Source: an uncultured Clostridia bacterium (GTDB lineage: Bacteria > Bacillota > Clostridia > Christensenellales > Aristaeellaceae). From it: 64,000 nt of DNA. The position numbers and the translations under genes were made by a program. The notes below the pieces were generated by a model that was not told the DNA's origin, ran no database searches, and saw only the letters and a program-made list of their open reading frames with translations. Shown here in pieces: positions 28,080 through 51,747 of the stretch (its first letter is position 1; each line of letters opens with the position of its first letter). The DNA is taken from assembly GCA_934675735.1 (NCBI GenBank), contig CAKURR010000013.1:11277-75276 (forward strand), written 5' to 3'.

Positions 28080-28096
28080 CCCCCCCGTCTCCCCCG

Positions 28097-29319: not shown

Positions 29320-29404
29320 AGGTAATCAGGATTCACCCTTCCGCCGCTCCCCTTCGCGGGAGAGGCAATACCGTTATCGGGAGGGCGCGAAGGAGGCAAT
29401 ACCG

Positions 29405-29839: not shown

Positions 29840-29845
29840 GCGGGA

Positions 29846-29880
29846 ACGGATGCACAGGTTTTCTGTACGTCCGTCTTTTT
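29846..29880 (+). terminator. terminator after the Rrf2 gene
   Basis: ACGGATGCACAG / CTGTACGTCCGT imperfect stem followed by CTTTTT. Confidence 0.5.
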
Positions 29881-29935
29881 ATAAGCGGTTAGCGGCCGAA
29901 CAAATCGGATTCGCAAATGCGGAGGCGCATCAATA

Positions 29936-30550: not shown

Positions 30551-30675
30551 ATTGCCGACCGATACCGCCGAAAATAACATCCTATCAATCTGTCGAATTG
30601 ACCCCCGCGATGCAATCGACGCGCTGTCGCTTATTCAAACGGAATTGATACATAGGCTTGAACGAGGTCATGAAA

Positions 30676-31182: not shown

Positions 31183-31243
31183 TATAAAATTGTGACATCC
31201 CGCAGGGATGAGGCGGACAAATCGAAATTTGCGGAGGCGCGTC

Positions 31244-31684: not shown

Positions 31685-31780
31685 ATTCCGATTTACTGTT
31701 CTCTTGTTCTTGCATATACCTTTACTTCATTTTCCCCTGATTCATATGCCTGTCCCCGCCTAACAGTATTCTCACTTTTC

Positions 31781-31818
31781 AAAAACGGACGCACAAGCTT
31801 CTGTGCGTCCGTCTTTTT
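31781..31818. terminator. bidirectional terminator shared by the GNAT (+) and TetR (-) genes
   Basis: ACGGACGCACA / TGTGCGTCCGT stem flanked by A5 and T5. The TetR stop codon lies in the T-run. Confidence 0.75.
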
Positions 31819-32410
31819 ATGCGTTCAAGCCGCCCTTCCACGGGCGAATCGGCAGGCTCTCGCTCCGCTTGAGCGACGCGCGGATGTTGCCGTCAAACAG
31901 CTGGCCGATGCGGGCGATCATCTCCAGCCCGTCCTCTTTCATCCCCTGCCCAATCCAGTTGAGCACCATCTCGGTCAGCGCGCTCTGGTAGAACTGCGCG
32001 ATGATATCCTTATCCTCCTGGCTCGCGTGGATGCCCGCGCTCTGCCGCTCGACATAGCGGCTCATAACCTCGCCCGCAACGTTGTACAGGTATTTTTCCA
32101 GCGTCTCGCGCTGCATCGAGTGATACACATGATAGACCGCGCGCTTATGCTGCAGCGCAATCTGCACCGCCTGCGCGATGCCCTCTTCCCACGTGACATG
32201 CTCCTTCACGCCGCCCAGCACCGCTTCCAGCTCGGATTCAAAAATCTCCGTCAGCACGGCATACAAATCCTGATAATAATAGTAAAACGTCTTGCGGTTG
32301 ATTTCGCACCGCGTCACCAGATCGGTCACGGTGATTTCGTCAAACGGGCGTTCGTCGAGCATCTCGATAAACACATTGCGAATCATGTTTCGGGTATACT
32401 TTTGCGCCAT
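31817..32410 (-). CDS. TetR/AcrR-family transcriptional regulator
   Basis: N-terminal HTH IRNVFIEMLDERPFDEITVTDLVTRCEINRKTFYYYY. GGAGGAACGAC precedes ATG 32410. Confidence 0.85.
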   Translation of the reverse strand: MAQKYTRNMIRNVFIEMLDERPFDEITVTDLVTRCEINRKTFYYYYQDLYAVLTEIFESELEAVLGGVKEHVTWEEGIAQAVQIALQHKRAVYHVYHSMQRETLEKYLYNVAGEVMSRYVERQSAGIHASQEDKDIIAQFYQSALTEMVLNWIGQGMKEDGLEMIARIGQLFDGNIRASLKRSESLPIRPWKGGLNA

Positions 32411-32595: not shown

Positions 32596-32671
32596 GGGGC
32601 ATTAGCGCAGTTGGTAGCGCACAACACTGGCAGTGTTGGGGTCAGGAGTTCGAATCTCCTATGCTCCACCA
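32596..32671 (+). tRNA. tRNA-Ala (anticodon GGC), CCA encoded
   Basis: A manual cloverleaf fits: acceptor GGGGCAT/ATGCTCC with the G3:U70 Ala identity pair, D arm GCGC/GCGC, anticodon arm CAACA-CTGGCAG-TGTTG and T arm AGGAG-TTCGAAT-CTCCT. Length 76 nt. Confidence 0.95.
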
Positions 32672-32808: not shown

Positions 32809-34092
32809 TTAAAACAGATTCCCATCCTCATCGAACTGCATATCCTTCGGCTCTTCGAGCACCTCAAAGCGCTCATCGCCGCGAATCTCTTCCAGCACGG
32901 CTTCGGAGACCCAGATATTTTCGAGATGGAGCGTATCCTGAATCCGCACGATGCGCAGGCGCTCCTTATCCGAGCCGATGGCCGTTTTCACCGCGGCCTT
33001 GATGGCGCGGCGCTGGTCGTCAAAGACCATCGGGATTTTGGCCGAATCGGTGCCGCCCGTCGTCAGCAGGTTGGGATAGGTGGTGTTGAAATCCATCTTC
33101 TCAAACATTCTGCGCGTCGTGGTATCCGCCGCGCCCAGACCGACGGCCGCGCCGTGGCTCTGCTCGGTGATATCCAGCACGGCGATTTTTTTCGCCCGCC
33201 CCTCGCGGCTGATGCCGGATTCCAGCGAGAAGGACTTGGTGATGTTGGTATCCATACCCGTTCCGCTGATGTTTTTGCCGATGTAATCGATGACCAGCAC
33301 GTCGAGGTTTTCGGGGATGATGCGCGGCATCAGCGAGCGCGCCTTGATGAGCATATCCGGCTCTTTTTCGCGGATTTCATCCGGCAGAAGCGCGGCGAGC
33401 GCATAGGTGCGGTCAAACGCGTTTTCCAGAATCGCGACGCCGAAGAGAATCTTTTCCTTTTGCAGGAACTGATTGCCAATAAGCTCGATGCTCTCGCCCA
33501 TTCGGCGGCGGCCGCGGTTGTGAACCGTTTCCGCGCCCTTCTGCTTGCCCAGACCGATGCACATCATCTTGAACAGGCCGCTCTCATAGCGCCCGCGGAA
33601 GCCCGTATGCGGCTTCACACGATTGATGACGACAATGCCGTCCGCCTCGTGCGCATAGCGGTCGATGTAGCACGGCGTTCCATCCTCCAGCTGCGAAAAC
33701 TGCACAACCTCCATGCCGGCGCGAATCGGGCAGCCCATCGTCTCTTCCGTAATGCCAAACCCTTCCAAAATGGCGCGCTGCCCCTCCGCAACCGCGCCGC
33801 CGTGGCTGCCCATCGCGGGGATGATAAACGGCTTCGCCCCCAGCGATTTGAGGAAGGCGACCGTCTCCCGAATGAGCAGGTCGATATGGCAGATGCCGCG
33901 GCTGCCCGCCGTCACGCAAATGGACATGCCGGGCTTCACCGTTTGGCGAATCGCTTCGCGGTTCAGCTCCTCACGCAGCACCTCCGCCGCGTCCTCCAGC
34001 TCGGAGGCTTCAAAAATCTGGCGAACCCGCGCCATTTTCGGCAGCCGAACCGGATCGACCAGCGCGTTCACCTTTTCGTTATGTTCATGCAT
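32809..34092 (-). CDS. LarA-fold (DUF2088-like) protein lacking the cofactor-tethering lysine
   Basis: 427 aa. By-eye alignment to LarA: AMGSHGG aligns with ATGFHRP, and KPHTGFRGRYESG aligns with ESHFFAGFSGGRKSV. The histidines are kept, but the Lys position is Glu. Its start lies 3 nt after the larA-homologue stop, with the SD inside that gene. Confidence 0.6.
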   Translation of the reverse strand: MHEHNEKVNALVDPVRLPKMARVRQIFEASELEDAAEVLREELNREAIRQTVKPGMSICVTAGSRGICHIDLLIRETVAFLKSLGAKPFIIPAMGSHGGAVAEGQRAILEGFGITEETMGCPIRAGMEVVQFSQLEDGTPCYIDRYAHEADGIVVINRVKPHTGFRGRYESGLFKMMCIGLGKQKGAETVHNRGRRRMGESIELIGNQFLQKEKILFGVAILENAFDRTYALAALLPDEIREKEPDMLIKARSLMPRIIPENLDVLVIDYIGKNISGTGMDTNITKSFSLESGISREGRAKKIAVLDITEQSHGAAVGLGAADTTTRRMFEKMDFNTTYPNLLTTGGTDSAKIPMVFDDQRRAIKAAVKTAIGSDKERLRIVRIQDTLHLENIWVSEAVLEEIRGDERFEVLEEPKDMQFDEDGNLF

Positions 34093-34095: not shown

Positions 34096-35370
34096 TCATT
34101 CTCCCTCTCCGAAACACGGGATGATTTCCGACGCGCTGGGCACGACGAGGATTTTGGCGTCCCTGCCGTATCGCGCAAGCATCGCGTCAATCGCCTCTTC
34201 CACCGTGTCAAACGCATCCATAAACATGGCGCGCGCCTGCTCCCGGCTAATCGCGCTGCCCGCCAGCACGACGTGGAACGCCTTGGCCGCTTTGGCAATC
34301 ATATAGGCCTTCCCGTTGCCGTTGGGCTTGTGCCCCTCCCGCAGGAAGGCTTCCATCACCTCGTCGGGCGAAGCGGCCTTTTCCAGCAGGATGCCGGGCT
34401 TGCCCGCCCCGTCCGGACAGGCGGCGCAGAGAATCACGCCGCCGTTCTCGCGACAGAGCATTTCCGCGCAGGCCAGCGACTTTTGGGACTGATGCAAATC
34501 GATATCCCGCGGGAAGCCGCCCGGGCTGACGATGACGATATCGGGCTTTTCGGGCACGTGCACCGTCCAGATTCGGCGGCTGAGTTCCGCGCCCGCGTAG
34601 AACGCCTCCTCCAAATCGCCCGAAACGCAGCGGACGATTTCGCGCTCGGTGTTTTCCACCGCGTTGACGATGAAATCCACGCCCGCGATGCGCGCCGCGC
34701 GCAAGGCCTCCTCGTGGAAGCGGTTGCCCGCCAGCACGCCCATCGACGCCTTTTCGGGGCGAATCGGGAAGAAATGGTGTTTTTGGATGGTCTCCAGCCC
34801 CGCAATGCCGGGCACGACGCTCTTCCGCCCGCCGGAGAAGCCCGCGAACTGGTGCGGCGCGATGCAGCCCGTCAAAATCTTCAAATCGGCCTGTGCAAAC
34901 GCGCGGTTGACGACGACGCGCACGCCGCCCTCGGTCGTGCCCAAATCCGCCAGCTGCGCCTCATCGCGGCAGTCGTGGTGAACGATGCGGAAGCGGGCCG
35001 TCACCTCTTCGCCGAAGGCCGCTGTCAGCTCCTCCGTCGTGTTTTTGCGATGCTGGCCATAGGCCACAATCAGCGAAATCTGCTCGTCGCGCATGCCCGC
35101 CAGATGCAGCTTTTTCGCGATTTCGAGCACCATTTCGCCGCCCGGGTAGGGGCGCGTGATGTCGTTGACGACAATCGCCGCGTTTTTTCTGCCGCGCGCC
35201 AAAACTTCCAGCTTTTCCGAGCCGATGGGTGCATCCAGACTGCGCGCGATTTCCGCGCGCACGTCGGCCGCGCCGGGCGTATAAGCAGGCACGGCGACGC
35301 CCATCAGATTCGGAACCCGCACATCGAACGCGTTATGGCCGATTTTCAGCCGAACCGTGTCCTGCGTCAT
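34096..35370 (-). CDS. LarA-family nickel-pincer-cofactor 2-hydroxyacid racemase/epimerase homologue
   Basis: 424 aa. Compared with L. plantarum LarA: SLDAPIGSEKLEVLARGRKNAAIVVNDITRPYP versus SLDNPIGSDKLEELARGKHNIVIISSDHTRPVP; VAYGQHRKNTTEEL (His108 equivalent); CIAPHQFAGFSGGRKSVVPGIAG (His174 and Lys184 equivalents); QKHH (His200 equivalent). Confidence 0.85.
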   Translation of the reverse strand: MTQDTVRLKIGHNAFDVRVPNLMGVAVPAYTPGAADVRAEIARSLDAPIGSEKLEVLARGRKNAAIVVNDITRPYPGGEMVLEIAKKLHLAGMRDEQISLIVAYGQHRKNTTEELTAAFGEEVTARFRIVHHDCRDEAQLADLGTTEGGVRVVVNRAFAQADLKILTGCIAPHQFAGFSGGRKSVVPGIAGLETIQKHHFFPIRPEKASMGVLAGNRFHEEALRAARIAGVDFIVNAVENTEREIVRCVSGDLEEAFYAGAELSRRIWTVHVPEKPDIVIVSPGGFPRDIDLHQSQKSLACAEMLCRENGGVILCAACPDGAGKPGILLEKAASPDEVMEAFLREGHKPNGNGKAYMIAKAAKAFHVVLAGSAISREQARAMFMDAFDTVEEAIDAMLARYGRDAKILVVPSASEIIPCFGEGE

Positions 35371-35383
35371 ACGCTTCCCTCCG

Positions 35384-36562
35384 TTAAATGACCGGGCCGA
35401 GGCAGTAAATATCCATCGTGGAGAAATACGTCAGCGACTCGTTCTTGGTCATGCGGCCGCTGAGCACGTCGAGCATCATCTCAAACGCCTCTTCGCCGAC
35501 CTGATCGATGTGCTTTTCGCCCGTGATGATGCGGCCCGCGTTGATATCCATATCGTGCTGCATGCGCTCGTAGGTGTTCGGGTTGCCGCAGATTTTGATG
35601 ACCGGCATGCTCGGGAAGCCCTGGGGCGCGCCGCGGCCGGTGGAGAACATCATCAGCTGCGCGCCGGTGGCGGCCATGCCGGTGAGGATTTCGGGCTCGC
35701 GGCCCGGCGTATCCTTAATCCACAGGCCCTTCTGCGTGGTGATGAAGTCCGGATATTCCAGCACGCCCTGAATCGGACGATGGCCGGATTTGACAATCGC
35801 GCCGAGGCTCTTTTCCTCGATGGAGGACAGGCCGCCCGCGATGTTGCCCGGGGTCGGCTGGCCGCCGCGCATATCCTCGCCGATGGCCTTCGCGCGGTTT
35901 TCCATGCGGTTGACGATTTCATAAATCTTCTGTCCCACAGGGCCGTCGCATCCGCCGACCGCGCGGTTGGCCAGAATATGCTCGCCGCCGAGGAACTCGG
36001 TCGTCTCGCCGAACACAACGGTCGCGCCGAGGTCAACCAGCTTGTCGGCCACATAGCCGATGACGCAGTTGGAGGCCATGCCCGACGTCGTGTCGGACGC
36101 GCCGCACTTGATGGACATGATGACTTCGGAAACATCCGCTTCCTCGCGCTGCGCGCCGGAGGCCTGCAAAACGAGCGCCTGCGCCGCGTCGATGCCCGCC
36201 TGAATGGCGCGCGCCATGCCGCCCAGCTCCTGAATGCGGATGACGGAAACGGGCTTGCCCGTCGCGGCGATTTCTTCCTGCATGCGCTGCACGTCCGTGC
36301 CCTCGCAGCCGAGGCTGACAATCAGCACGCCCGCCACATTCGGGCCTTTGCCCAGGCTGATGAGCGTATCCGTCACGCGCTTGAGGTCGATGGGCAGCTG
36401 GCAGCAGCCCTGATGATGGAAGTAGCCGACCGTGCCCTGCACCTGACGGACGATGGCCTGCGCGACGTCCGTCGCACAGATGACGCTCGGGATGACCGCA
36501 ACCAGGTTGCGGGAGCCGATGGTGCCGTTTGCGCGGCGATAACCGTAAAATGTACGTCTCAT
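35384..36562 (-). CDS. UxaA/GarD/SuyB-type dehydratase (lyase), large subunit
   Basis: 392 aa. Motifs GYRRANGTIGSRNLVAVIPSV, HHQGCCQ, SLGCEG and KCGASDTTSG are typical of the altronate/galactarate dehydratase C-terminal family. AAAGGAGG lies before the ATG. Confidence 0.8.
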   Translation of the reverse strand: MRRTFYGYRRANGTIGSRNLVAVIPSVICATDVAQAIVRQVQGTVGYFHHQGCCQLPIDLKRVTDTLISLGKGPNVAGVLIVSLGCEGTDVQRMQEEIAATGKPVSVIRIQELGGMARAIQAGIDAAQALVLQASGAQREEADVSEVIMSIKCGASDTTSGMASNCVIGYVADKLVDLGATVVFGETTEFLGGEHILANRAVGGCDGPVGQKIYEIVNRMENRAKAIGEDMRGGQPTPGNIAGGLSSIEEKSLGAIVKSGHRPIQGVLEYPDFITTQKGLWIKDTPGREPEILTGMAATGAQLMMFSTGRGAPQGFPSMPVIKICGNPNTYERMQHDMDINAGRIITGEKHIDQVGEEAFEMMLDVLSGRMTKNESLTYFSTMDIYCLGPVI

Positions 36563-36576
36563 TTCGATTTCCTCCT

Positions 36577-36870
36577 TTACAGGTCGCCGCGCCCGCGCAG
36601 GGCTTCCAGATTATGCACGTGCACATACTCGCCCTCGGCGATATCTTTCGTCGCCGCGCCGATGACCTCGCCGTATTTGACGATATGCTCGCCCTTGGCA
36701 ATGGGCTGAGCCGCAATCTTATGGCCGTAGGGCACGTTGCCGATGACCTTGATATCGCGGCAGTTGCCTTTTTTGTCGCGCAGTTCCACAACGTCTCCGT
36801 CCTTCACGTCGTTGACGAACAGGGTGGCCACGTTGTCCTTTTCATCCACGATAAGCGCAATTTTCGCCAT
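36577..36870 (-). CDS. UxaA/SuyA-type dehydratase small subunit (SAF domain)
   Basis: 97 aa. DNVATLFVNDVKDGDVV..YGHKIAAQPIAKGEHIVKYGEVIGAATKDIAEGEYVHVHN is a SAF-domain signature. Its stop lies 14 nt before the large-subunit start. Confidence 0.8.
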   Translation of the reverse strand: MAKIALIVDEKDNVATLFVNDVKDGDVVELRDKKGNCRDIKVIGNVPYGHKIAAQPIAKGEHIVKYGEVIGAATKDIAEGEYVHVHNLEALRGRGDL

Positions 36871-36916
36871 ATCCCTTTTCACTTCTTTCTTCATTCTTTT
36901 CCGTTTTGAAGGAAAC

Positions 36917-36994
36917 GGGGCTGTCAAGCCCTTAAACCCGACATTTCAAGAATAAATAAGTCTTTGAAATCTTTGATTTAAGCTTGACAGCCCC
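36917..36994. repeat. 78-nt long-hairpin element E1 (GGGGCTGTCAAGC ... GCTTGACAGCCCC)
   Basis: Near-perfect inverted repeat filling most of the fumC / uxaA-small spacer. A homologous element lies at 50164-50350. Confidence 0.85.
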
Positions 36995-37000
36995 CTTGAT

Positions 37001-38380
37001 TTATTTCTGAATCGGAGAAACCATCTTCTCGGGGCGGACGATTTCGTCGAATTTCTCGCCCGAGAGCAAACCGAGCTTCACGGCCGCCTCTTTGAGCGTC
37101 AGGTTCTCGCGGAACGCTGTCTTGGCGACCTTCGCCGCGTTCTCATAGCCGATATGCGGGTTGAGCGCGGTGACCAGCATCAGCGACTGGTTGAGGTATT
37201 CCCGAATCTTTTCGCGGTTGGGCTTGATGCCGCGGGCGCAGCGCTCTTCAAAGGAGAGCATCACGTCGCCCAGCAGCCGCGCGGATTGCAGGAAGTTGTA
37301 GATGCACACGGGCATGAACACGTTCAGCTCGAAGTTGCCCTGAGAAGCCGCCATGCTCACCGCCACGTCGTTGGCCATTACCTGCACGGCGACCATCGTC
37401 ATCGCCTCGCACTGGGTCGGGTTGACCTTGCCCGGCATGATGGAGCTGCCCGGCTCGTTTTCCGGAATCAGCAGCTCCCCGATACCACAGCGCGGGCCGG
37501 AGGACAGCAGACGCACGTCGTTGGCAATCTTCATCAAATCCGTCGCCAGCGCCTTCATCGCGCCGTGAACGTAGACAAGCTCGTCCTTGCTGGTCAGCGC
37601 GTGGAACTTGTTGGGCGCGGTGATGAACGTCTTGCCCGTCAGCGCGGAAATCTCCGCCGCGACGGTCTCGCCGAACTCGGGCAGGGCGTTCAGGCCCGTG
37701 CCGACGGCCGTGCCGCCCAGCGCAAGCTCGCGCACCTCGTCGAGGGACCGGCGAATCATCTTCGCGTCCTTTTCCAGCGAAGCGGCCCAGCCGCTGATTT
37801 CCTGCCCCAGCGTCAGGGGTGTGGCGTCCTGCAAGTGGGTGCGGCCCACTTTGATGACGTCGGCATACTCCTCGCTGAGCTTCACAAACGTCTTTTCCAG
37901 CACGTCGATGGCGGGCAGAACGTGGTCCTCCACCGCAATCAGCGCGGCGATGTGCATCGCCGTGGGGAACGTGTCGTTGGAGCTCTGCGACTTATTCACA
38001 TGGTCGTTGGGGTGAACCAGCTTTTCGCCCAGAATCTCGTTGGCGCGCGCGGCCACCACCTCGTTGACGTTCATGTTGCTCTGCGTGCCGCTGCCCGTCT
38101 GCCAAACCACCAGCGGGAACTCTTCATCCAGCTTGCCTGCGAGAATCTCGTCGCACGCGGCGGCAATCGCGTCCGTGCGCTTCTTGTCGAGATTGCCGAG
38201 CTTGCAGTTGGCCAGCGCGGACGCTTTCTTGAGAATGGCGAACGCGCGAATTACCTCGTGCGGGATGGTCTCCGTGCCGATGGGGAAATTTTCGTGGCTG
38301 CGCTGGGTCTGCGCGCCCCAGTAGTGATTGGCGGGCACACGAACCTCGCCCATCGTGTCGTGTTCAATGCGATATTCCAT
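37001..38380 (-). CDS. fumC: class II fumarate hydratase
   Basis: [28 protein letters not shown] and the signature [29 protein letters not shown] lies before the ATG. Confidence 0.9.
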
Positions 38381-38398: not shown

Positions 38399-39772
38399 TC
38401 AGGCCTTGGCCTTTGCCTCGTTGTCGCTCCTGATATGAGCGACGACCTGATCGCAGATTTCGCCGCACAGGCCGGTATATCCTTCCGGCGCGAGAATCTT
38501 CTGCACCTGTTCGCGGGTCATGTGGGCGGCGACGGTTTCGTTCTTCATGAGCATATCGCAGAAATCCGCCTTCTGCTCGAAGGTATCCATGCAGATCTGG
38601 TAGACGATGCCGTGCGCGGTCTGCTTGCCGACATACTTGCCCAGCTCGAGCATGATGCCCTCGCTCTGCATGAGGCCCTTGAGGATATCCAAATCGGCGC
38701 GCATCTTGGCCGCGTCCACCTGCAGGTGAGCGGTGACGACCTTGACGTTGTTGGCAGAGGAGCCCGCGAGAATGACGACTTCCGGCGCGGCCTTCCACTC
38801 AATCTTCCACAGCGCGCCGTCGCGCTCGTTTTCGCACATCATGGATTCCATGTTCGCATCCATCGACGCCTTGGTCAGCTTGGCCAGCATCTGCAGGGAC
38901 TCGAGCTTGTTCGGGTTGCGCTTATGCGGCATCGTGGAGGAGCCGACGGAGCCGGGCACGAAGCCCTCGAACGCCTCGCTCAGCTCGGTCTTTTGCAGGT
39001 TGGCCAGCTCGTTGCCGATTTTGCCGTTGGTGTAGGCCATCATCGCCAGCGTCATGCAGATTTCGGAGAGGCGGTCGCGGGAGACATGCCACGCCACGTC
39101 CGGCACATCCAGACCGAGACGCTTGATGGTGCGGGAGCAGACCTCCAAGCCCTGCGGGCCGAAGCCGGCCATCGAGCCGACCGCTCCGGCCATCTCGCCC
39201 ACGAAGCAGCGCTTCCGGCACTCTTCCATGCGCTCGATGTTGCGGTGCACCTCGCTCGCCCACACGGCCACCTTGTAGCCGAAGGTAATCGGCAGGGCCT
39301 GCTGGGTGTGGGAGCGGCCCGGCATGATGGTGTCGCGGTATTTTTCGACCAGCACAATCAGGTTCTGCTCGGTCTCGCGCATGTCGGCCAGAATGACCTC
39401 ATAGCCGCGCTTGATGGAGAGCATGAACGCCGTGTCGATGATATCCTGCGTGGTCGCGCCCATGTGGACGTACTCGCCGAGGTTGTTGTCGCACACGCGT
39501 TGGAACTCTTTGAGAATCGGCACGAGGGAGTGGCCCACGCGCTTGATTTCGGACTCGATGCGCGGGATATCCAGGTTCTCGGCCTTCGCCTTCCTGACGA
39601 TTTCGTCGGCGGCCTCCTGCGGAATCAGGCCCATCTCCGCCTGAGTCTCGGCCAGCGCGGCTTCGATATCCAGAATGTTCTGAATCATCGCCACGTCGTC
39701 AAAGATTTCGCGCATCTTCGGGGTGCTGTAGCTGTTGCGGTAGAGCATGGAATCGAGCATGTTGCATGCCAT
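38399..39772 (-). CDS. adenylosuccinate-lyase / 3-carboxymuconate-cycloisomerase-family lyase (fumarase-aspartase superfamily)
   Basis: 457 aa. Motifs HMGATTQDIIDT, PGRSHTQQALPITFG and the catalytic loop GSSTMPHKRNP. GGGAGG lies 9 nt before the ATG. Substrate not assignable. Confidence 0.8.
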   Translation of the reverse strand: MACNMLDSMLYRNSYSTPKMREIFDDVAMIQNILDIEAALAETQAEMGLIPQEAADEIVRKAKAENLDIPRIESEIKRVGHSLVPILKEFQRVCDNNLGEYVHMGATTQDIIDTAFMLSIKRGYEVILADMRETEQNLIVLVEKYRDTIMPGRSHTQQALPITFGYKVAVWASEVHRNIERMEECRKRCFVGEMAGAVGSMAGFGPQGLEVCSRTIKRLGLDVPDVAWHVSRDRLSEICMTLAMMAYTNGKIGNELANLQKTELSEAFEGFVPGSVGSSTMPHKRNPNKLESLQMLAKLTKASMDANMESMMCENERDGALWKIEWKAAPEVVILAGSSANNVKVVTAHLQVDAAKMRADLDILKGLMQSEGIMLELGKYVGKQTAHGIVYQICMDTFEQKADFCDMLMKNETVAAHMTREQVQKILAPEGYTGLCGEICDQVVAHIRSDNEAKAKA

Positions 39773-39774: not shown

Positions 39775-41175
39775 TTATGACCTCCCTAACATTGTTCTGA
39801 GCGAATCCGTCAAATCGCGGATTCGGGTATCATCCTTCGCGCCGAGCACGCGTTCCATCACGGCTGCGGCTTCGTCGGCCGAAAGCGTCATTTCGGCCAG
39901 CGACATAAACTTGTTTTCAATCACGCTGTGCGGCGGCCTGCCCTCGGGCAGGTTGACCGTCTTTTCCAGCGTGCGCCCGTCCTTGAGGGTGACGGTCACC
40001 TTCTCCGGCCTGCTCGCCGGATAGACCGCCGTAAACGCGGGTTCCTCGCGCACCGTGACGCGCGCGCCGAGCGCCGCGGCCGCCTCGCTGTTCAGGCTCT
40101 CGGGCGTAAACTCGCTGAGCGTCACGCGCCCGTTGAGCAGCATCATCGCGATGCAGTACGGCAGAGAGAACTTGGCCTTGAGGTTGGTGCTCACGTTGTA
40201 AGCCGAGCACAGCTCGCGCGCCGTCTTGTAAACGGCGACGTCGATGCGCTCCACATCCGCCGCGCCGAACGCGTTTTCGCGCATCAGCTGCTGAAGGGCA
40301 TCGAGCGCGCAGTGCGTGTGCCCGCAGGAGGCGTGAATCTTATAATACGCGTCCTCCATCATCAGCGGGTCGCCCGCCTTGGGCACCATGAAGCTCAGGT
40401 CGTCCTTGCTGCGCGCGGCGTGAGCAAAGCCCCGCTCGGCGGCAAAGCCGTCCTCCGGCGCGGTGAACTGCCAGTTTCCGGCCAGCTCCGCCGCCGCCGC
40501 GCCGTTTCGGGCCGCGTTGCCGACCGTCACGAGCTTGGCTTCCGTGCCGAACACGTGCACCAGGCCCGAAGCCGTCGTCGCCGCAATGCCCATCGCGGTT
40601 TCCGTCTGCTCCGGCGAAAGCCCCATGATTTTGGCGCAGGCCGCCGCCGCGGCAAACGTGCCGCATGTGCCCGTCGTGTGCCAATACACATAGTGGTCGG
40701 GGTTGGCCGCGCCGCCCATGCGGATCATGGCTTCATAGCCCGCCGCAACGCCCAGCGCGTATTGGCCGAAGCTCGCATCCAGCGCCTCCGCCTCGGCCAG
40801 CGCCGCCGAAACGACCGGCGCGCCGGGGTGGGTAATGGCGATTTTATTGGTGTCGTCATACTCGAGCGCGTGGCTGAGCATGCCGTTGCAGAAAGCCGCC
40901 GTGCCGACGGAGGTCTTTTCCGCCAGACCGAACGCGGTCGCCTGCGGATTGCCGCCGCAGGCGCGCGCATAGCCCTTGATTCGCTTCGCGACGTCGCCGT
41001 TCTGCGCCGCGATGACACAGCCGAGCCAATCCAGCGTCTTATAGCGAAGGTCGATTCGGTTCGCTTCGCCGAGCTGCTCGCTCGAAAGCGCGCAGAGAAA
41101 TTCGCAAAGCTGTCGGGTCAGATTCAAAAGCGCATCCCCCATTTCATCGTTTTTGGGCCGACGGGGCGAAATCAA
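39775..41175 (-). CDS. MmgE/PrpD-family protein
   Basis: About 455-466 aa with PrpD-type strings (LDWLGCVIAA, LEYDDT, HPGAPVVSAAL, GTCGTFAAAAA). The start is uncertain: TTG 41175 overlaps the tctA stop as TTGA, or ATG 41142. Confidence 0.8.
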   Translation of the reverse strand: MISPRRPKNDEMGDALLNLTRQLCEFLCALSSEQLGEANRIDLRYKTLDWLGCVIAAQNGDVAKRIKGYARACGGNPQATAFGLAEKTSVGTAAFCNGMLSHALEYDDTNKIAITHPGAPVVSAALAEAEALDASFGQYALGVAAGYEAMIRMGGAANPDHYVYWHTTGTCGTFAAAAACAKIMGLSPEQTETAMGIAATTASGLVHVFGTEAKLVTVGNAARNGAAAAELAGNWQFTAPEDGFAAERGFAHAARSKDDLSFMVPKAGDPLMMEDAYYKIHASCGHTHCALDALQQLMRENAFGAADVERIDVAVYKTARELCSAYNVSTNLKAKFSLPYCIAMMLLNGRVTLSEFTPESLNSEAAAALGARVTVREEPAFTAVYPASRPEKVTVTLKDGRTLEKTVNLPEGRPPHSVIENKFMSLAEMTLSADEAAAVMERVLGAKDDTRIRDLTDSLRTMLGRS

Positions 41176-42722
41176 TCGTCGTCGTCGATTTCCTCGCCGT
41201 CCGCCTGATCAAACGTGTTCACAATGCCGCGCTTCTGGCGAACCATCTTGATAATGTTGGAGATAATCGGGATGAAGAAGCTGACGAGCGACACGAGCAT
41301 GATGACCGCCGTCACCGGACGCGTCCACAGGAAGTTGTAAGAGCCCTTGGAGATGACCAGCGCCTGACGCAGCTGGCTTTCCGCCATCGAGCCGAGCACG
41401 AGGCAGACAATCAGCGGCGCGGCCGGAATTTCAAACTTATGGAAGAGATAGCCGATAAGGCCGAAGAGGATGACGATGAGCACGTCAAACGGGTTGGAGC
41501 TGAGCGCATAGCAGCCGGTGGCGCACAGCGCGAGCACGATGCCGTTGAGCAGCGCTTCCGGAATGGCCAGAACCTTCTTAATCCAGCGGAGCAGAATCAT
41601 GCCCAGCGGCCACATCAGCAGGTTGACGAGGAAGAACGCGATGAAGATGCCGTAAGCAATATCCGCATGCTCGGTGAAGAGCACCGGGCCGGTGGAAAGG
41701 CCCTGAAGCATCAGCGCGCCGAGGAACAGCGCGGAGGTGGAGTTGCCCGGCACGCCCAGCGCCAGCAGCGGCACCATCGAGCCGCCCGTAACGGCGTTGT
41801 TGGCGCTTTCCGGCGCGGCCACGCCGCGGGGATTGCCCTTGCCGAAGGTGTTGCCGTCCTTGCCGAACTTCTTTTCGGTGTCATACGCCAGAACGGTGGC
41901 GACGTTGGTGCCCGCGCCGGGGATGATGCCGATAATCGTGCCGATCACGCTGCCGCGGATGAACGTCGGCAGGAGCTTGAAGCATTCCTTCCAGCCGATC
42001 CAGACGCCCTTGACGTCCGGCAGCTTTTCGGTGTCATACGCGCTCATGGAGCGGAACTTGTCGGCGCTCTTGAGCACGGCGCAGACGCCGAACAGGCCCA
42101 TCAGCGCCGGAACGAGCTGAATGCCATCCAGCAGGTTGACGTTGCCGAAGGTGAAGCGTTTCGCGCCAGACTGCGGGTCCATGCCGATCATGGCGATGAA
42201 CAGACCGATCATGCCGGAGAGCAGGCCCTTGGAGAGCGACTTGCCGCCGATGCTGGAAATGCAGCACAGGCCGAGCACGGCGACGGCGAAGTATTCCGCC
42301 GGGCCGAATTTGAGGGCGACTTCCGCCAGAAACGTCGTCAGGAACGTGAGCACCACGGCGGAGAACAGGCCGCCGAAAACGCTCGCCATCGTGGAAATGC
42401 CCAGCGCGCGGCCCGCCTGGCCCTTCTTGGCCATGGGGTAGCCGTCAAGCGTCGTGGCAAACGAGGATATCGTGCCCGGTATGCCGAGCAGGATGGCGGA
42501 AATCGAGCCGCCGTAGATGGAGGAGCAGTAAATCGCAACGAGGAACGCGATGGCCGCCGTCGGCTCCATCGAGAAGGTGACGGGAACCATCAGCGCGATG
42601 GCCATATTGCCCGTCAGACCCGGCAGCGCGCCGATAATCAGGCCCGCGACCGTGCCGATAATCATGAACAGGATGGTGTTGAAGTTCATGAGCGCCAGAA
42701 ATCCGGCAACAAAGTTTTCCAT
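41172..42722 (-). CDS. tctA: tripartite tricarboxylate transporter, large permease
   Basis: 516 aa, highly hydrophobic. The N-terminus has GALPGLTGNMAIALMVP, followed by a TctA-type duplicated core. Confidence 0.9.
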   Translation of the reverse strand: MENFVAGFLALMNFNTILFMIIGTVAGLIIGALPGLTGNMAIALMVPVTFSMEPTAAIAFLVAIYCSSIYGGSISAILLGIPGTISSFATTLDGYPMAKKGQAGRALGISTMASVFGGLFSAVVLTFLTTFLAEVALKFGPAEYFAVAVLGLCCISSIGGKSLSKGLLSGMIGLFIAMIGMDPQSGAKRFTFGNVNLLDGIQLVPALMGLFGVCAVLKSADKFRSMSAYDTEKLPDVKGVWIGWKECFKLLPTFIRGSVIGTIIGIIPGAGTNVATVLAYDTEKKFGKDGNTFGKGNPRGVAAPESANNAVTGGSMVPLLALGVPGNSTSALFLGALMLQGLSTGPVLFTEHADIAYGIFIAFFLVNLLMWPLGMILLRWIKKVLAIPEALLNGIVLALCATGCYALSSNPFDVLIVILFGLIGYLFHKFEIPAAPLIVCLVLGSMAESQLRQALVISKGSYNFLWTRPVTAVIMLVSLVSFFIPIISNIIKMVRQKRGIVNTFDQADGEEIDDDD

Positions 42723-42739: not shown

Positions 42740-43192
42740 TTAGAAGAACATCGCCGTGAAGTGCGTGCCGAGGAACTGGGAGAACGCGACGTACAGCCCA
42801 ATGCTGACCAGCAGCGAGGACGGCACCAGCACCTTCCACTTCTTGTAGCCCAGAATCACGGACGTGCACAAAATCAGCAGGAACGTCGAGATGGTGTAGC
42901 TGAAATATTGGAAACCGAAGTAATACGCGAAGAGCAGCGCGGTGATGAGCGCCACGCGGAGGTAATCCGGCTTGGCCTTGGCCGGCTTATCCTTCGCGCC
43001 GGTCTTTTTATCCTTCATCAGTTCCAGAATCGAGAAAACGACGATCACAACGCCCAGCAGCACGATTGCGCCCGCAATCAGCTTCGGCCAGAACGCGCTT
43101 TTGGCCTTGAGCGAACCGCTCATGTAATAAATCCACGCGCCAAACGCAAGCGAAGCCACGCCGACGCCGAAGTCTTTTTTGTGTTGAAGCAT
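42740..43192 (-). CDS. tctB: tripartite tricarboxylate transporter, small membrane subunit
   Basis: 150 aa with 4 TM segments, 17 nt upstream of tctA. AAGGGAGG lies before ATG 43192. Confidence 0.75.
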   Translation of the reverse strand: MLQHKKDFGVGVASLAFGAWIYYMSGSLKAKSAFWPKLIAGAIVLLGVVIVVFSILELMKDKKTGAKDKPAKAKPDYLRVALITALLFAYYFGFQYFSYTISTFLLILCTSVILGYKKWKVLVPSSLLVSIGLYVAFSQFLGTHFTAMFF

Positions 43193-43267
43193 ATCTGAAC
43201 CGCCTCCCTTGTCCGAGGACAATTTTTTTCAACTTGAATGATGCAAATGGGGCTTCAAAAAGAGTAA

Positions 43268-43393: not shown

Positions 43394-44353
43394 TTATTCT
43401 TCGAGGAGGTGATAGATGCTTTCCATGTTCTGATAATCCTGGTCGAGCATGGCCTGGAAGTCGGCGGCGCTGAGATAAGCGGCCGGGAAGCCCGCGTTGT
43501 CAAACGCAGCCAGCACGTCCGGATCTTCCATAACTTTCTTGAGCGCGTCGCTCAGGATGGTAACGACCTCGTCCGGCGTGCCCTTCGGCACGGCGTAGCC
43601 GCGATACGCGCCGTAGACGAACGGGTCAAAGCCCGCTTCTTCAACGGTCGGCACATCCGGCAGAGCCGCGGTGCGCTCGTTCGCGCAGACAGCCAGCGGA
43701 ACGATCTTGCCGTCGGCAATCAGGGTCGCCGCGCCGCCGTAGGTGGTGAAGCCCATCTGCACGTGGCCGCCGGCCAGCTGCACAACCTGCTCGGAGGAGC
43801 CGTTGGTGTGAACATATTCAAAGTTCACGCCGAACTGCTGAGCGAAAATCAGGCTGGCGATGTGGTGAGAGGTGGAGAAGCCCGGGGTGGAGTTGGTCAG
43901 GATGCCTTCCTGACCGGCCTTCATCAGCTCGGCGAGCGTCGTGAAGCCGGAATCGGCGGAAGCGACGATGACCTCGGGATCATAGCAGACCTGACCGACC
44001 GCAATCGCATCTTCCATGCCGTACTCGGTGTCGCCGGAGAGAACGTTGGTGACGAAGCTGGAGGTCAGCGCCAGAACGGTGTAGCCGTCGGGCGCCTGAT
44101 TGAGGGCGTAGGTCTGGCCGATGATGGCGCCGCCGCCTTCCTTGCATTCCACAACGACGTTGGTGTCGAGCACCTTGCCCAGCGCGTCGGCGACGATGCG
44201 GGTCGTCAAATCGACGTTGCCGCCCGCCTTAAACGGAACGATAATGGTGATGGTTTTGCCGTTCGGGAAATTGGTTTCCGCGCTTGCCGCCGCGCAGCAG
44301 AACACGAGCGCCAGAGCAGCAAACAGAGCAACGATTCGGGACAGTTTCTTCAT
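43394..44353 (-). CDS. tctC: tripartite tricarboxylate transporter substrate-binding protein (Bug/TctC family)
   Basis: 319 aa with a signal peptide (MKKLSRIVALFAALALVFCCAAASA) and Bug-family core (KPGGNVDL-like AGGNVDLTTRIVA, PGFSTSHH). Confidence 0.85.
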   Translation of the reverse strand: MKKLSRIVALFAALALVFCCAAASAETNFPNGKTITIIVPFKAGGNVDLTTRIVADALGKVLDTNVVVECKEGGGAIIGQTYALNQAPDGYTVLALTSSFVTNVLSGDTEYGMEDAIAVGQVCYDPEVIVASADSGFTTLAELMKAGQEGILTNSTPGFSTSHHIASLIFAQQFGVNFEYVHTNGSSEQVVQLAGGHVQMGFTTYGGAATLIADGKIVPLAVCANERTAALPDVPTVEEAGFDPFVYGAYRGYAVPKGTPDEVVTILSDALKKVMEDPDVLAAFDNAGFPAAYLSAADFQAMLDQDYQNMESIYHLLEE

Positions 44354-44934: not shown

Positions 44935-45849
44935 TTACGCTTCCGGCGACCACTTGAGCGATGTGGCGATATCGATGAATTTCTGTAAATCGGGGTTCTC
45001 CTCCGCGCCGAAGGCACAGGCCACATACAGCTTGCGCAGCAGGCGGTTTTTGCCGATGTGGCAGTAGCAGGGCTGCTGCGTCGGCGAGCACAGGCGAACG
45101 GTCGTCTCCGGTATGAAAGCCAGGCCCGTGTCGTGAAAGACCAGATTGTTGGCGTTTTCCGTGCTCTTGCAGTAAAGCGTGATGTTCGGCCTGAACCCCG
45201 CCTTCTTCGCTTCGTTCATCAGCATCACGCCGATGCGCCGCTTGCCCTCATACGAAATGAAGCTTTCATCCTTGAAATCGGCCAGCTCCGCAACGGGTCT
45301 GCCGTCCGCGGCAAGGGGCAGGCCCGCAATCGCGGGGTGATTCGGCGGCAGGGCCAGAAAAATCTCTTCCTGATAGATTTCGTGCACCGAAAGCATTTGC
45401 GGCAAAGGATCCATCACAATCGCCGCATCCAGCTTCTTGTTTTCAATCTCTTCGATGAGCGTGTTGGTGAAGCCGTCCACAATATCCAGCTCCACGTCGG
45501 GCCGCACCTTGCGAAAGAGCGAAACAATGCGCATCAGAAAAAAGCGCTGATACGACGGCGCAGCGCCCAGCCGCAGCGTCGCCGTCTCTCCCCGCGAAAG
45601 CGCGTTGAGCCGATTGAGCATGTGATCCTCCAGCTCCAGCATGCGCCGCGCGTCCGCAACGATGATTTCCCCCGCCTTGGTCAGCTTGGTCTTTTTGTTG
45701 TGCTCGAAAACGGGCATGCCGATTTCCTGCTCCAAACGCTGAATGGCCTGGCTGAGCGCGGGCTGCGTCACATATAAAACCTCTGCCGCCTTGGAATAGC
45801 TTCCACAATCAACAATCGTGGTCAAATAACGAAGGGTCGACAGTTTCAT
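44935..45849 (-). CDS. LysR-family transcriptional regulator
   Basis: N-terminal HTH MKLSTLRYLTTIVDCGSYSKAAEVLYVTQPALSQAIQRLEQEIG plus a LysR substrate-binding domain. Confidence 0.9.
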   Translation of the reverse strand: MKLSTLRYLTTIVDCGSYSKAAEVLYVTQPALSQAIQRLEQEIGMPVFEHNKKTKLTKAGEIIVADARRMLELEDHMLNRLNALSRGETATLRLGAAPSYQRFFLMRIVSLFRKVRPDVELDIVDGFTNTLIEEIENKKLDAAIVMDPLPQMLSVHEIYQEEIFLALPPNHPAIAGLPLAADGRPVAELADFKDESFISYEGKRRIGVMLMNEAKKAGFRPNITLYCKSTENANNLVFHDTGLAFIPETTVRLCSPTQQPCYCHIGKNRLLRKLYVACAFGAEENPDLQKFIDIATSLKWSPEA

Positions 45850-50381: not shown

Positions 50382-51551
50382 TTAAATTCTCGCCACGCCG
50401 GTCTCGCGGGCCGCCTTCATCACGGCGTCCGCCACGGCGCGGGCCACGCGCTTATCCAGCGCATCCGGCAGAATGTAATCCACGGAGAGCTTGTCGCCCA
50501 CCAAATCGGAGAGCGCATGGGACGCGGCCATCTTCATCTCTTCGTTGATGCAGGTGGCGCGGCAGTCCAGCGCGCCGCGGAAAATGCCGGGGAAAGCCAT
50601 CACGTTGTTGATTTGGTTCGGGAAGTCGCTGCGGCCCGTGCCCACAACCGCCGCGCCCGCGGCCTTCGCCTCGTCGGGCATGATTTCGGGCACCGGATTC
50701 GCCATCGCAAAGACAATCGGGTCTTTGGCCATCGAGCGAACCATGTCCTGCGTCAGCACGCCGGGCGCGCTCACGCCGATGAACACATCCGCGTCCTTCA
50801 CCGCGTCGGCCAGCTTGCCGCGCAGATGCTCGCGGTTGGTGACCTTAGCCATCTCCGCCTGCGCCGGATTCAGCTCTTCCATGCCCTCGTCGATGATGCC
50901 GAAGCGGTCAACCAGCGTCAAATGCTTCACGCCCAGGTTCAGCATGTGCTTGGAAATCGCGATGCCCGCGCTGCCCGCGCCGTTGAGCACCACGCGCGCC
51001 GTGCCGATATCCCTGCCCGTCACCTTGAGCGCGCCGAGCAGCGCGGCGGCGACGACGACGGCCGTGCCGTGCTGGTCGTCGTGGAAAACGGGGATATCGC
51101 AGATTTCCTTCAGCCGACGCTCGATTTCAAAGCAGCGCGGCGCGGCGATATCCTCCAGATTGATGCCGCCGAAGGAACCGGCCAGCAGGCTGATGGTCTG
51201 CACGATTTCGTCCACATTCTTGGAGCGGACGCAGAGCGGGAACGCATCCACGTCGGCAAACGCCTTAAACAGCGCGCACTTGCCCTCCATGACGGGCATG
51301 CCCGCCTCCGGCCCGATATCGCCCAGACCAAGCACCGCGGTGCCGTCCGTGATGACGGCGACCAGATTGGCGCGGCGCGTCAGCTCGTAGGATTTGTTCA
51401 CGTCGTCATGAATGACCATGCAGGCTTCCGCAACGCCCGGGGTATACGCCAGGGACAGGTCGTGGCGGTCGTTGATGGGCGCGCGGGAAATGACCTCGAT
51501 TTTGCCCTTCCACTCATAGTGCTTGGCCAGCGATTCTTCACGGATATTCAT
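50382..51551 (-). CDS. NAD(P)-dependent malic enzyme (short form)
   Basis: 389 aa. Motifs HDLSLAYTPGVA, GTAVLGLGDIGPEAGMPVMEGK, FGGINLEDI, FHDDQHGTA and GAGSAG. The SD AAAGG lies 9 nt before ATG 51551. Confidence 0.9.
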   Translation of the reverse strand: MNIREESLAKHYEWKGKIEVISRAPINDRHDLSLAYTPGVAEACMVIHDDVNKSYELTRRANLVAVITDGTAVLGLGDIGPEAGMPVMEGKCALFKAFADVDAFPLCVRSKNVDEIVQTISLLAGSFGGINLEDIAAPRCFEIERRLKEICDIPVFHDDQHGTAVVVAAALLGALKVTGRDIGTARVVLNGAGSAGIAISKHMLNLGVKHLTLVDRFGIIDEGMEELNPAQAEMAKVTNREHLRGKLADAVKDADVFIGVSAPGVLTQDMVRSMAKDPIVFAMANPVPEIMPDEAKAAGAAVVGTGRSDFPNQINNVMAFPGIFRGALDCRATCINEEMKMAASHALSDLVGDKLSVDYILPDALDKRVARAVADAVMKAARETGVARI

Positions 51552-51747
51552 GTGTTTCATCCTTTCTTTGCTCGAATATGAAAGCGTCTGTTTGGTACAG
51601 TCTTTTGAATTTCGACTTCTTTTTTGTTTAATCTTACCATATATTCGTCGCAAAGTAAAATTCGTTTTCATGATTGAATCAATAAGCAAATGTGATGACG
51701 GCCCGCGCGGCGGCCATTTTTCTGGACACCAGCTTAAAATATAAGAA

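Follow-up and report, generated by a model that had tools for sequence, protein, structure and literature searches.

The 64-kb stretch of DNA analysed here (the window, over whose full length all positions are numbered) lies on contig CAKURR010000013.1 of an uncultured Clostridia bacterium of the human gut. It was first noted for three minus-strand genes at 34096-36870, which encode the two subunits of a UxaA-family dehydratase and a homologue of the nickel-pincer lactate racemase LarA. We see that these genes belong to a ten-gene operon that also encodes a tripartite tricarboxylate transporter (TTT), TctCBA, and a second nickel-pincer-type enzyme, here called G22. What is new is the combination, in which a malate-racemase-like LarA subclade and a group-22 isomerase share one operon with a distinct UxaA-family dehydratase, a protein resembling iminodisuccinate (IDS) epimerase, and a lyase resembling CMLE and the trans-aconitate decarboxylase Tad1. 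With slightly better than even confidence, we read the operon as a catabolic route for an imported hydroxy-polycarboxylate, in which epimerases would funnel stereoisomers to a stereospecific dehydratase, a substrate of the tartrate or glycerate type being favoured.

The ten-gene operon and its enzymes

The ten genes all lie on the minus strand. The operon opens with the transporter, namely the substrate-binding protein TctC (43394..44353, Pfam TctC 141 bits), the small membrane subunit TctB (42740..43222, Pfam TctB 62.8 bits) and the large permease TctA (41172..42722, Pfam TctA 521 bits). There follow an MmgE/PrpD-family protein of the IDS-epimerase or bacterial 'IRG1' type (39775..41175, Pfam MmgE_PrpD_N and MmgE_PrpD_C), a class-II-fumarase-fold lyase of the CMLE/Tad1/CreD/XcbD subgroup (38399..39772, Pfam Lyase_1 and ADSL_C) and the class II fumarate hydratase FumC (37001..38380, TIGR00979 765.7 bits, above the cut-off of 664.75). 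Genes 7-10 are the SAF-domain small dehydratase subunit (36577..36870, Pfam SAF 30.9 bits), the UxaA-family large subunit, here UxaL (35384..36562, Pfam GD_AH_second 118 bits and GD_AH_C 283 bits), the LarA homologue (34096..35370, 424 aa, Pfam Lar_N 213 bits and LarA_C 69 bits) and, last, G22 (32809..34092, 427 aa). By the coordinates of the open reading frames (ORFs), the intergenic gaps are mostly between -4 and 18 nucleotides (nt), the latter at the lyase-FumC junction, and the two long gaps measure 171 nt (tctC-tctB) and 130 nt (FumC-SAF). Read from the sequence, the SAF stop and the UxaL ATG are 14 nt apart with AGGAGG between them, the UxaL TAA and the LarA ATG are 13 nt apart with GGAGGG between them, and only 3 nt separate the LarA TGA from the G22 ATG. 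Coordinates, Pfam matches and sequence thus agree with the earlier description of a split dehydratase (a 97-aa SAF subunit and a 392-aa large subunit) ending 13 nt before LarA, and the 97-aa SAF reading from the ATG at 36870 agrees with the gene call in identical metagenome contigs.

The FumC-SAF spacer (36885-36995, minus strand) folds as a long hairpin with a 13-bp GC-rich outer stem, GGGGCUGUCAAGC / GCUUGACAGCCCC. It folds at -43.5 kcal/mol (z = -5.4), better than every one of 200 shuffled sequences. Such a hairpin may serve as an internal terminator, as an attenuator or as a processing site, or it may be a trace of FumC insertion.

The LarA homologue was aligned by MAFFT with Lactobacillus plantarum LarA (from a plasmid lar operon), Mar1, Mar2 and 14 homologues. 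Its residues D70, R73, H107, H173, K183, H199, Q294 and K297 correspond to LarA D72, R75, H108, H174, K184, H200, Q295 and K298, so that the catalytic and cofactor-binding residues reported in the earlier note are confirmed, and all eight are kept in 14/14 sampled homologues. The translation carries GQHRKN, APHQFAGFSGGRK and QKHH. The closest solved structure is the malate racemase Mar2 (6D6Z, E 2.7e-73), and the alignment to the Mar2 and LarA structures is full-length. The protein scores below the cut-off of every equivalog compared: 409.7 bits against 500 for malate racemase LarAH6 (NF052593), 352.8 bits against 462 for malate racemase LarAH5 (NF052595), and 339.5 bits against 460 for lactate racemase LarA (NF033504). 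Identities, taken against Dataset S2 of Desguin 2020, are 42% to a group-5 outlier (Tepidanaerobacter), 37% to Mar2 and 34% to Mar1.

Malate racemases are defined by His or Gln followed by Lys at the positions of LarA W358 and T359 (Urdiain-Arraiza et al. 2024, PMC11770544), and they use that Lys to bind the distal carboxylate (PMC11770544). The window protein has Gly353-Lys354 there, so the Lys is kept but the His/Gln is lost, and it departs from the malate-racemase signature. At the position of Tyr294, which all characterised enzymes share, it has His293. The lactate-racemase signature (Phe-Phe after His174, and Trp at 358) is likewise absent, as the window protein has Gln-Phe and Gly. Mar1, from Desulfitobacterium hafniense, shares with it the Gln-Phe after the His174 equivalent and the Lys at the T359-equivalent position, but the His of the Mar1 G-H-K motif is replaced by G353 and Tyr294 by H293. 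Mar2/LarAH6 (6D6Z, 7S91) and LarAH62 have the catalytic and cofactor residues and the second-carboxylate Lys in common with the window protein, which differs from Mar2/LarAH6 in having Gly for His/Gln at the W358 position and His for Tyr294. Because the eight residues are kept, Mar2 is nearest, all equivalog cut-offs are failed, and the Gly-Lys pair and His293 set it apart, we class the protein on its sequence as a genuine LarA-superfamily enzyme of an uncharacterised malate-racemase-like subclade. The W358-equivalent is Gly in the UxaA-linked subclade and Ser or Ala in more distant relatives, and any of these would leave room for a substituent at C3 of the ligand.

G22 scores 527.4 bits on NCBIfam NF052515, named 'nickel pincer cofactor-dependent isomerase, group 22', above the equivalog cut-off of 400. 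There is no sequence-level match for it in the PDB. An AlphaFold2 model built with 20 homologues (pLDDT 86.8, pTM 0.85) was compared by Foldseek with the PDB; every one of its 19 best matches is a LarA-family structure (E 2e-12 to 3e-9), and the match after these stands at 3e-3. G22 aligns with the R75, H108, H174, K184 and H200 equivalents, while D72, Q295 and K298 do not align. The model and alignment place G22 in the LarA superfamily, with a predicted LarA fold, both catalytic histidines and the Lys/His cofactor ligands. LarA homologue (LarAH) group 22 is listed as of 'unknown function', with dehydratases, TRAP transporters, sugar kinases and LarE in its gene context (Desguin 2020, PMC7583248). 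Relatives of G22 lie beside dehydratases of the UxaA or MR/MLE family; the window differs in that G22 shares its operon with a second, unrelated LarA lineage.

UxaL matches galactarate dehydratase GarD (6U7L, E 3e-55), its sole solved relative. More than 7,500 database proteins match UxaL at E <= 1e-20; the best 120 listed are almost all at least 80% identical, and the few named among these 120 are from Lachnospiraceae and Oscillospiraceae. The orthogroup (81-87% identical) is found in the gut, and in every context read (about ten) a nickel-pincer isomerase gene adjoins it. In a neighbour-joining tree, the window UxaL clade is sister to a Sporomusa protein. Outside the clade fall a true UxaA from a uronate cluster (35% identity) and a context-verified SuyAB-like protein (38% identity), which groups with a Selenomonas protein and lies among genes for a TauE sulfite exporter and for SlcC-like and Ldh_2/ComC-like dehydrogenases. 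GarD (33% identity) is absent from the tree and is placed outside the UxaL clade by identity and TIGR03248 score alone. Orthology to SuyB was rejected, as the SuyAB-like pair is not sister to UxaL in the tree, and an ordinary UxaA or GarD was rejected on a TIGR03248 score of 228 bits against 731, the split architecture, and the low identity to GarD and the context-verified UxaA (33-35%). Since tree, identities and equivalog score all set UxaL apart, its sequence marks it as a member of a distinct UxaA-family clade that is not orthologous to SuyB, UxaA or GarD.

The PrpD-family protein has its best PDB matches in Bacillus subtilis IRG1 (7BRA, 1.7e-41) and IDS epimerase (2HP3, 4.5e-40), with much weaker matches to cis-aconitate decarboxylases (about 1e-21) and PrpD (1e-8). 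The proposed IDS-epimerase bases, H99 and Y145, are kept (in THPGAP and DHYVYWH), and the active sites of the B. subtilis IRG1 and IDS epimerase are fully conserved with each other (PMC7347537). A 2-methylcitrate dehydratase PrpD was considered for 39775-41175 and rejected, the equivalogs giving 35.9 bits against 575 and 35.7 bits against 458. By its domains and bases the protein belongs to the IDS-epimerase/IRG1 branch of the MmgE/PrpD family, and its epimerase activity is putative. The best NCBIfam matches of the lyase are all below cut-off (PRK08937.2-4, 477 bits against 626; XcbD, 466 bits against 600), and in the PDB it matches 3C8T (5e-85), Ustilago trans-aconitate decarboxylase Tad1 (3.7e-82), CMLE (4e-78) and ADSL (about 1e-54). 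Within this subgroup are enzymes that form lactones, enzymes that decarboxylate, and enzymes that free fumarate from succinyl adducts. An epimerase-type PrpD-family protein beside a fumarase-superfamily lyase that would free fumarate, as seen in the window, recalls both the paired genes for IDS epimerase and a C-N lyase in Agrobacterium tumefaciens BY6 and the yxe system, whose YxeQ is a PrpD-family protein. S-(2-succino) lyase (2SL) is in the superfamily of the window lyase, and the yxe operon carries YxeQ (PMC9706529). The yxe/2SL system differs from the window operon, which is without an acetyltransferase or deacetylase and whose lyase has Tad1 and CMLE as its nearest solved relatives.

Conservation and gene context in other genomes

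Clusters identical to that in the window occur in human-gut metagenome contigs, Hadza samples included. A GTDB scan with one genome per species gave 43 loci, onto which the window proteins were mapped by tblastn. Seven loci encode a LarA 61-71% identical to that of the window, in an Angelakisella metagenome-assembled genome (MAG; 65%), four rumen Clostridia MAGs and two MAGs of other uncultured Clostridia/Clostridiales. The genes for TctCBA, the PrpD-family protein, the lyase, SAF, UxaL, LarA and G22 are in the same order in all seven (LarA at least 61% identical), with one extra gene between LarA and G22 in L031. The position of tctC is kept (L007-L011, L031 and L033), and SAF is 58-77% identical in these full-cluster relatives. 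FumC is near the cluster in 6/7 species, its position varying, and in L008 it lies beside a malic-enzyme homologue (66% identity to that of the window) and adjoins the cluster. As the order SAF-UxaL-LarA-G22 recurs in 7/7 species representatives, the linkage is beyond chance. In the four rumen MAGs, an additional gene after tctA and before the PrpD-family gene encodes an Ldh_2-family dehydrogenase, which matches L-sulfolactate dehydrogenase best (226 bits, below the cut-off of 500).

More distant relatives of the LarA homologue have a different context. None of the 22 loci with a LarA at 50-58% identity has a UxaA-family gene; within 10 kb, a PrpD-family gene is found in 17 of them and an aconitase/LeuCD-family gene in 18, with TctA or TctC in most. 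The pocket residues are Gln-Phe...Gly-Lys in relatives at least 59% identical, where every context read is UxaA-linked, and Gln-Leu...Ser-Lys in six sampled relatives (51-57%), where UxaA is missing from the contexts read, which have split aconitase/LeuCD-type genes and in some cases a PrpD-family gene. The LarA pocket residues therefore co-vary with gene context.

The dehydratase is also found with other LarA lineages. In other gut Clostridia, the UxaL orthogroup (81-84% identical) occurs in GntR-LarA-SAF-UxaL units, whose LarA is only 32% identical to that of the window, scores 576 bits on the lactate-racemase equivalog (cut-off 460) and has a hydrophobic Phe-Phe...Trp-Cys pocket. The Cys at the T359-equivalent position is shared with LarAH42 of Enterocloster asparagiformis (PMC11770544), an enzyme with weak activity on all tested acids, and the LarA of these loci (L052 type) is likened to LarAH42 by this pocket signature alone. 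SAF is 61-68% identical in three such loci (L052, L055 and L056), and in L055 a gene for a pyridoxal-phosphate enzyme resembling CuyA and D-cysteine desulfhydrase follows LarA-SAF-UxaL. In L052 (11212-13505), and also in L053 and L054, LarA-SAF-UxaL is followed by a gene for a 597-aa protein without any Pfam or NCBIfam match, whose end is overlapped by a gene for a 169-aa protein with only a Ni_insertion (LarC-type) domain. These two proteins may be an unrecognised nickel-pincer accessory pair.

G22 and its relatives accompany UxaA-type dehydratases more widely. A Sporomusa termitida plasmid has the order MR/MLE-TctCBA-G22-SAF-UxaL-GntR, roseobacter plasmids have a fused UxaA followed by G22 and larC, and L068 has TctA-lyase-PrpD-SAF-UxaL-Ldh_2-DmsABC-G22, without a malate-racemase-like LarA. 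The DmsABC-type molybdoenzyme of L068 (6252-9944), between Ldh_2 and G22, includes a DmsA/YnfE subunit scoring 1126 bits on TIGR02166, a hint that the chemistry of that variant involves an S- or N-oxide or some other group that can be reduced. In Niallia taxi, a 49%-identical G22 relative lies two genes upstream of larE-larB-larC1-larC2, with one 256-aa ORF between.

Relatives of G22 at 55-59% identity are found on three independent gut contigs (L069, L070 and L071) in a conserved sigma54(PrpR-type)-MOFRL-G22-enolase operon, at about 8000-10550 in L070, that is divergent from TctCBA and beside tetronate genes. A 3-oxo-tetronate kinase and PdxA are encoded nearby in L070, and two kinases of the same domain family and PdxA in L069, while neither a tetronate-type kinase nor PdxA is found within the L071 locus. 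Its gene content suggests a so far undescribed route by which a small hydroxy acid would be turned into phosphoenolpyruvate via a nickel-pincer isomerase. Haloarchaeal plasmids (L066, L067; Haloferax and Natribaculum) encode G22 homologues, for which 'DUF362 domain-containing' is a frequent annotation, next to dehydratases of the enolase superfamily (MR/MLE), with TRAP transporter and IclR genes also nearby in Natribaculum. As G22 is seen beside both UxaA-family and MR/MLE enzymes, group 22 pairs with dehydratases of two unrelated folds.

The pairing of LarA with a dehydratase is a known genomic association, as it was tabulated for LarAH group 5, the Mar1 group: 19 COG2721 'altronate dehydratase' genes for 15 LarAHs, with TctC at 26% and TctA at 26% (Desguin et al. 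2020, Table S1, PMC7583248). The window operon differs from the LarAH5/Mar1 context by adding a second nickel-pincer enzyme, the PrpD-family protein, the lyase and FumC. UxaA-family dehydratases are seen here beside three LarA-superfamily lineages, to which the tabulated group 5 adds a fourth. These gene contexts make a recurrent module of a nickel-pincer racemase or epimerase with a stereospecific UxaA-family hydro-lyase well supported. The earlier proposal of a racemase and stereospecific lyase pair survives in this form, but the pair is not self-contained, as G22 follows 3 nt downstream within a ten-gene operon. By gene neighbourhood, UxaL is constantly accompanied by a nickel-pincer isomerase, but not always by one of the same lineage. 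Of the two epimerases, G22 is the one that stays more steadily with UxaA-type dehydratases across genomes (Sporomusa, roseobacters, L068), and the deeper partners of the window LarA clade are PrpD-family proteins, aconitase-family proteins and TTT transporters. Because G22 travels with UxaA, and LarA relatives at 50-58% identity occur without it, the epimerase that serves the dehydratase could be either LarA or G22.

A proposed pathway and its alternatives

The sequences show what the genes encode, that the catalytic residues are kept, how the operon is built and that its linkage persists across species; from these observations we infer the reactions of the pathway, its substrate and which epimerase might serve the dehydratase. 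TctCBA would import a hydroxy-di- or tricarboxylate, for which we favour the tartrate or glycerate type of 2,3-dihydroxy acid. The LarA homologue and G22 would invert C2-hydroxyl stereocentres by passing a hydride transiently to the pincer cofactor, with the histidine pair as acid and base, and each available stereoisomer would be converted to the form accepted by the next enzyme. The SAF and UxaL subunits would then take off the C2 proton and the C3 leaving group (OH in the favoured case), giving an enol that would tautomerise to a 2-oxo acid, either oxaloacetate or pyruvate. The PrpD-family protein, the CMLE/Tad1-like lyase, FumC and a nearby malic enzyme (50382..51689, minus strand, Pfam malic and Malic_M) may form a branch via fumarate and malate to pyruvate. 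Fumarate is a likely pathway intermediate because a canonical fumarase stays linked to the cluster, and fumarase, malic enzyme and the Ldh_2 of the rumen relatives could handle oxaloacetate and malate.

A C3-C4 2,3-dihydroxy acid is favoured for several reasons. Enzymes of the UxaA/GarD family abstract an alpha-proton and expel a beta-hydroxyl to give a 2-oxo product; characterised malate racemases also epimerise tartrate; and the LarA homologue retains the Lys beside a smaller neighbour. The tartrate or glycerate type is further favoured because G22 relatives lie beside tetronate genes and TctCBA, and because FumC and malic enzyme stay linked to the cluster as their positions shift. The tartrate activity of Mar1 is still lower than its malate activity. 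Its Km for L-malate is 55 mM, and its authors propose tartrate or 2-hydroxysuccinamate (PMC7583248), so the native substrate of Mar1 is not settled as malate. Were the general model right, a substrate of the tartrate, glycerate or small sugar-acid type would be our leading, if still tentative, choice; sulfolactate, a succinyl adduct, and an acid of the aconitate, isocitrate or hydroxycitrate type would each be rather improbable and of equal weight, the rest being left to other substrates.

Several points weigh against this proposal. Its substrate is putative, and a simple tartrate or glycerate route leaves the roles of the PrpD-family protein and the lyase unexplained: the reactions known for the best structural relatives of these two are aconitate decarboxylation, iminodisuccinate epimerisation and the cleavage of succinyl adducts. 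Elsewhere, as described above, this dehydratase orthogroup occurs with a LarA of lactate-racemase type, whose hydrophobic pocket would fit a small monocarboxylate better than tartrate. Loose hints of organosulfur chemistry are given by the CuyA/D-cysteine-desulfhydrase-like gene in L055, the sulfolactate-dehydrogenase-like Ldh_2 in rumen relatives, the DmsA-type S-/N-oxide reductase in L068, and cysK near two loci. Genes for cofactor synthesis are absent from the window and from within 10 kb of the seven full-cluster relatives. The earlier note had reported no larB, larC or larE in the window, and this was borne out: tblastn with L. plantarum LarB, LarC1, LarC2 and LarE, roseobacter LarC and a clostridial Ni_insertion protein hit nothing but the LarA gene (E <= 0.01), and none of the 30 window ORFs scanned with Pfam carries an AIRC, Ni_insertion or LarE-type domain. 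Among the titles and abstracts returned by a literature search, nothing relevant to a UxaA-type tartrate dehydratase was seen.

The candidate that the earlier note had put first is sulfolactate. On this account TctCBA imports racemic 3-sulfolactate, a nickel-pincer racemase replaces SlcC/ComC, and a SuyAB-type pair yields pyruvate and sulfite. We consider it unlikely. The likeness to the SuyAB system is clear in the two-subunit SAF and UxaA-type architecture, in racemisation followed by stereospecific beta-elimination to a 2-oxo acid, and in TTT uptake (SlcHFG), for which sulfolactate offers a precedent (PMC10507020), but that system racemises with two NAD-dependent dehydrogenases (SlcC/ComC) whereas the window has predicted nickel-pincer enzymes. 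Sulfolactate is the sulfonate analogue of malate and suits a malate-racemase-like pocket with its Lys, and Mar1, a LarAH always beside COG2721, has the high Km for malate given above. The Ldh_2 of the rumen relatives and the CuyA-like enzyme of L055 also speak for a sulfonate. The analogy drawn in the earlier note nevertheless extends only to the separate subunits and not to orthology, as the SuyAB-like pair groups apart from UxaL with the Selenomonas protein. The 30 Pfam-scanned window ORFs include no sulfite exporter or reductase and no sulfolactate dehydrogenase (the related full-cluster loci were not searched for such genes), and the route leaves the PrpD-family protein, lyase, FumC and aconitases without a role. 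A literature search for a nickel-dependent sulfolactate racemase returned nothing relevant.

About equally doubtful is a route that does give every gene a role. Its substrate would be a tricarboxylate in which a succinyl group is S-, N- or O-linked to a three-carbon 2-hydroxy or 2-amino acid, for example S-(2-succino)cysteine or its hydroxy analogue. The IDS-epimerase-like protein would invert the succinyl carbon, the lyase would free fumarate for FumC and malic enzyme, and the epimerases and UxaA pair would expel the heteroatom of the 3-substituted lactate that is left, yielding pyruvate. This agrees with the retention of both IDS-epimerase bases, the match to IDS epimerase and 'IRG1' far above that to PrpD, the shared active site of those two proteins, the presence of 2SL in the lyase superfamily and of YxeQ in the yxe operon, the linkage of FumC to the cluster, and the DmsA-type S-/N-oxide reductase inside the analogous cluster L068. 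However, a hydroxy-thioether or ether substrate of this sort is not known from the gut. A YxeL-type acetyltransferase or deacetylase is missing from the operon, other species do not keep the neighbouring GNAT, Rrf2 and cysK genes beside the cluster, and Tad1 and CMLE are closer relatives of the lyase than are any lyases whose C-S or C-N activity has been proven. We hold it quite improbable that the operon degrades an unrecognised tricarboxylate thioether or ether of this kind (a succinyl adduct of a three-carbon 2-hydroxy acid), that the nickel-pincer epimerases reset its C2-OH centre and that the SuyAB-like orthogroup is a beta-eliminase that frees H2S or sulfite from 3-substituted lactates.

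A tricarboxylate route, to which we give similarly little credence, would have LarA epimerise C2 of an isocitrate-like 3-substituted malate and the UxaA pair convert hydroxycitrate to oxalosuccinate, with the IRG1-like and Tad1-like proteins acting on aconitate-type intermediates. The PrpD-family and aconitase/LeuCD-family genes (17 and 18 of 22 loci) and the transporter genes beside the 50-58% LarA relatives suggest such a route, and the closest named structures of the two odd enzymes are cis- and trans-aconitate decarboxylases. A Gly, Ser or Ala at the W358 position would also fit a C3 substituent. An aconitase gene lies directly upstream of tctC in five of the seven full-cluster relatives (homologues of the first window aconitase; L008-L011 and L033), and the window itself has two tandem aconitase paralogues upstream (46279-48267 and 48204-50174, minus strand; NF005558 823 and 683 bits, cut-off 612), whose ORFs overlap by ~60 nt. 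Such a side-by-side pair suggests that one copy acts on something besides citrate. Against the route, the conserved canonical fumarase would be superfluous, the active-site bases of the PrpD-family protein are those of the epimerase and not of the mammalian decarboxylase, the dehydratase orthogroup is found in many loci without tricarboxylate genes, and a literature search found no bacterial hydroxycitrate (gut) pathway.

Ordinary hexuronate or aldarate catabolism, with the pair as an altronate or galactarate dehydratase, is very improbable: it has in its favour the Pfam GD_AH domains and GarD as the only solved relative, but the equivalog score and identities given above speak against it and no uxaB, uxaC, kdgK, kduI or garL-type gene was found among the annotated cluster and flanking genes of the window or the conserved genes of the seven related clusters, so that the finding of the earlier note, which had itself raised this possibility, stands.

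The hydroxy-polycarboxylate reading bears on a wider gap, in that a physiological substrate is still lacking for most LarA-superfamily enzymes, among them Mar1, LarAH42 and group 22. At least four LarA lineages adjoin UxaA-family dehydratases, and the UxaL orthogroup is very common in gut and rumen Clostridia, so three orphan enzyme groups come down to one question: which 2-hydroxy acid does the dehydratase turn into a 2-oxo acid? If the substrate is tartrate-like, the operon would fill a gap in how gut Firmicutes break down a dietary acid, and if it is an organosulfur acid, it would bear on the formation of H2S or sulfite in the gut. The thioether or ether reading, if true, would amount to a new and widespread gut sulfur-release route and would give native substrates to three orphan LarA lineages.

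Regulatory features and neighbouring genes

A gene for a LysR-family regulator (44935..45849, minus strand, Pfam HTH_1 and LysR_substrate) lies directly upstream of the operon and is a candidate for its regulator; a LysR gene is also found upstream of the cluster in L007. On the same strand, a terminator scan found a strong terminator of the upstream lysR with a 14-bp stem at 44805-44775, and a promoter scan found a promoter-like site before tctC at 44447-44419. A search of the window against Rfam gave no riboswitch or other regulatory RNA, and tRNA alone. The nearest TctC homologues with solved structures are too distant (E 1e-38 or weaker) to indicate the ligand of the window protein.

Just beyond the last stop codon of the operon, a tRNA-Ala(GGC) is encoded on the opposite strand (32596-32671, plus). 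In 2-kb bins, the GC content of 30001-32000 is 0.486, compared with ~0.57-0.63 in flanking bins, and this bin holds two GNAT genes, one of them with a low GC content at third codon positions (0.38). By its composition, the bin may be a small inserted island. Genes for sulfur amino acids are found at 24756-30550, comprising a MetQ/MetN/MetI-like transporter, cysK (TIGR01139 464 bits), an Rrf2 regulator (partly CymR-like) and an ATC-hydrolase-family gene. The GNAT, Rrf2, cysK, ATC-hydrolase and MetQNI genes were considered as members of the system and rejected as mere neighbours, as they are not kept beside the cluster in other species, with the exception of a 61%-identical cysK upstream of G22-SAF-UxaL on the Sporomusa plasmid (L057:165-1142). 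The left end of the window carries a gene for a phage terminase large subunit (1540-2964, minus strand, Terminase_6N and Terminase_3), which indicates a prophage or prophage remnant.

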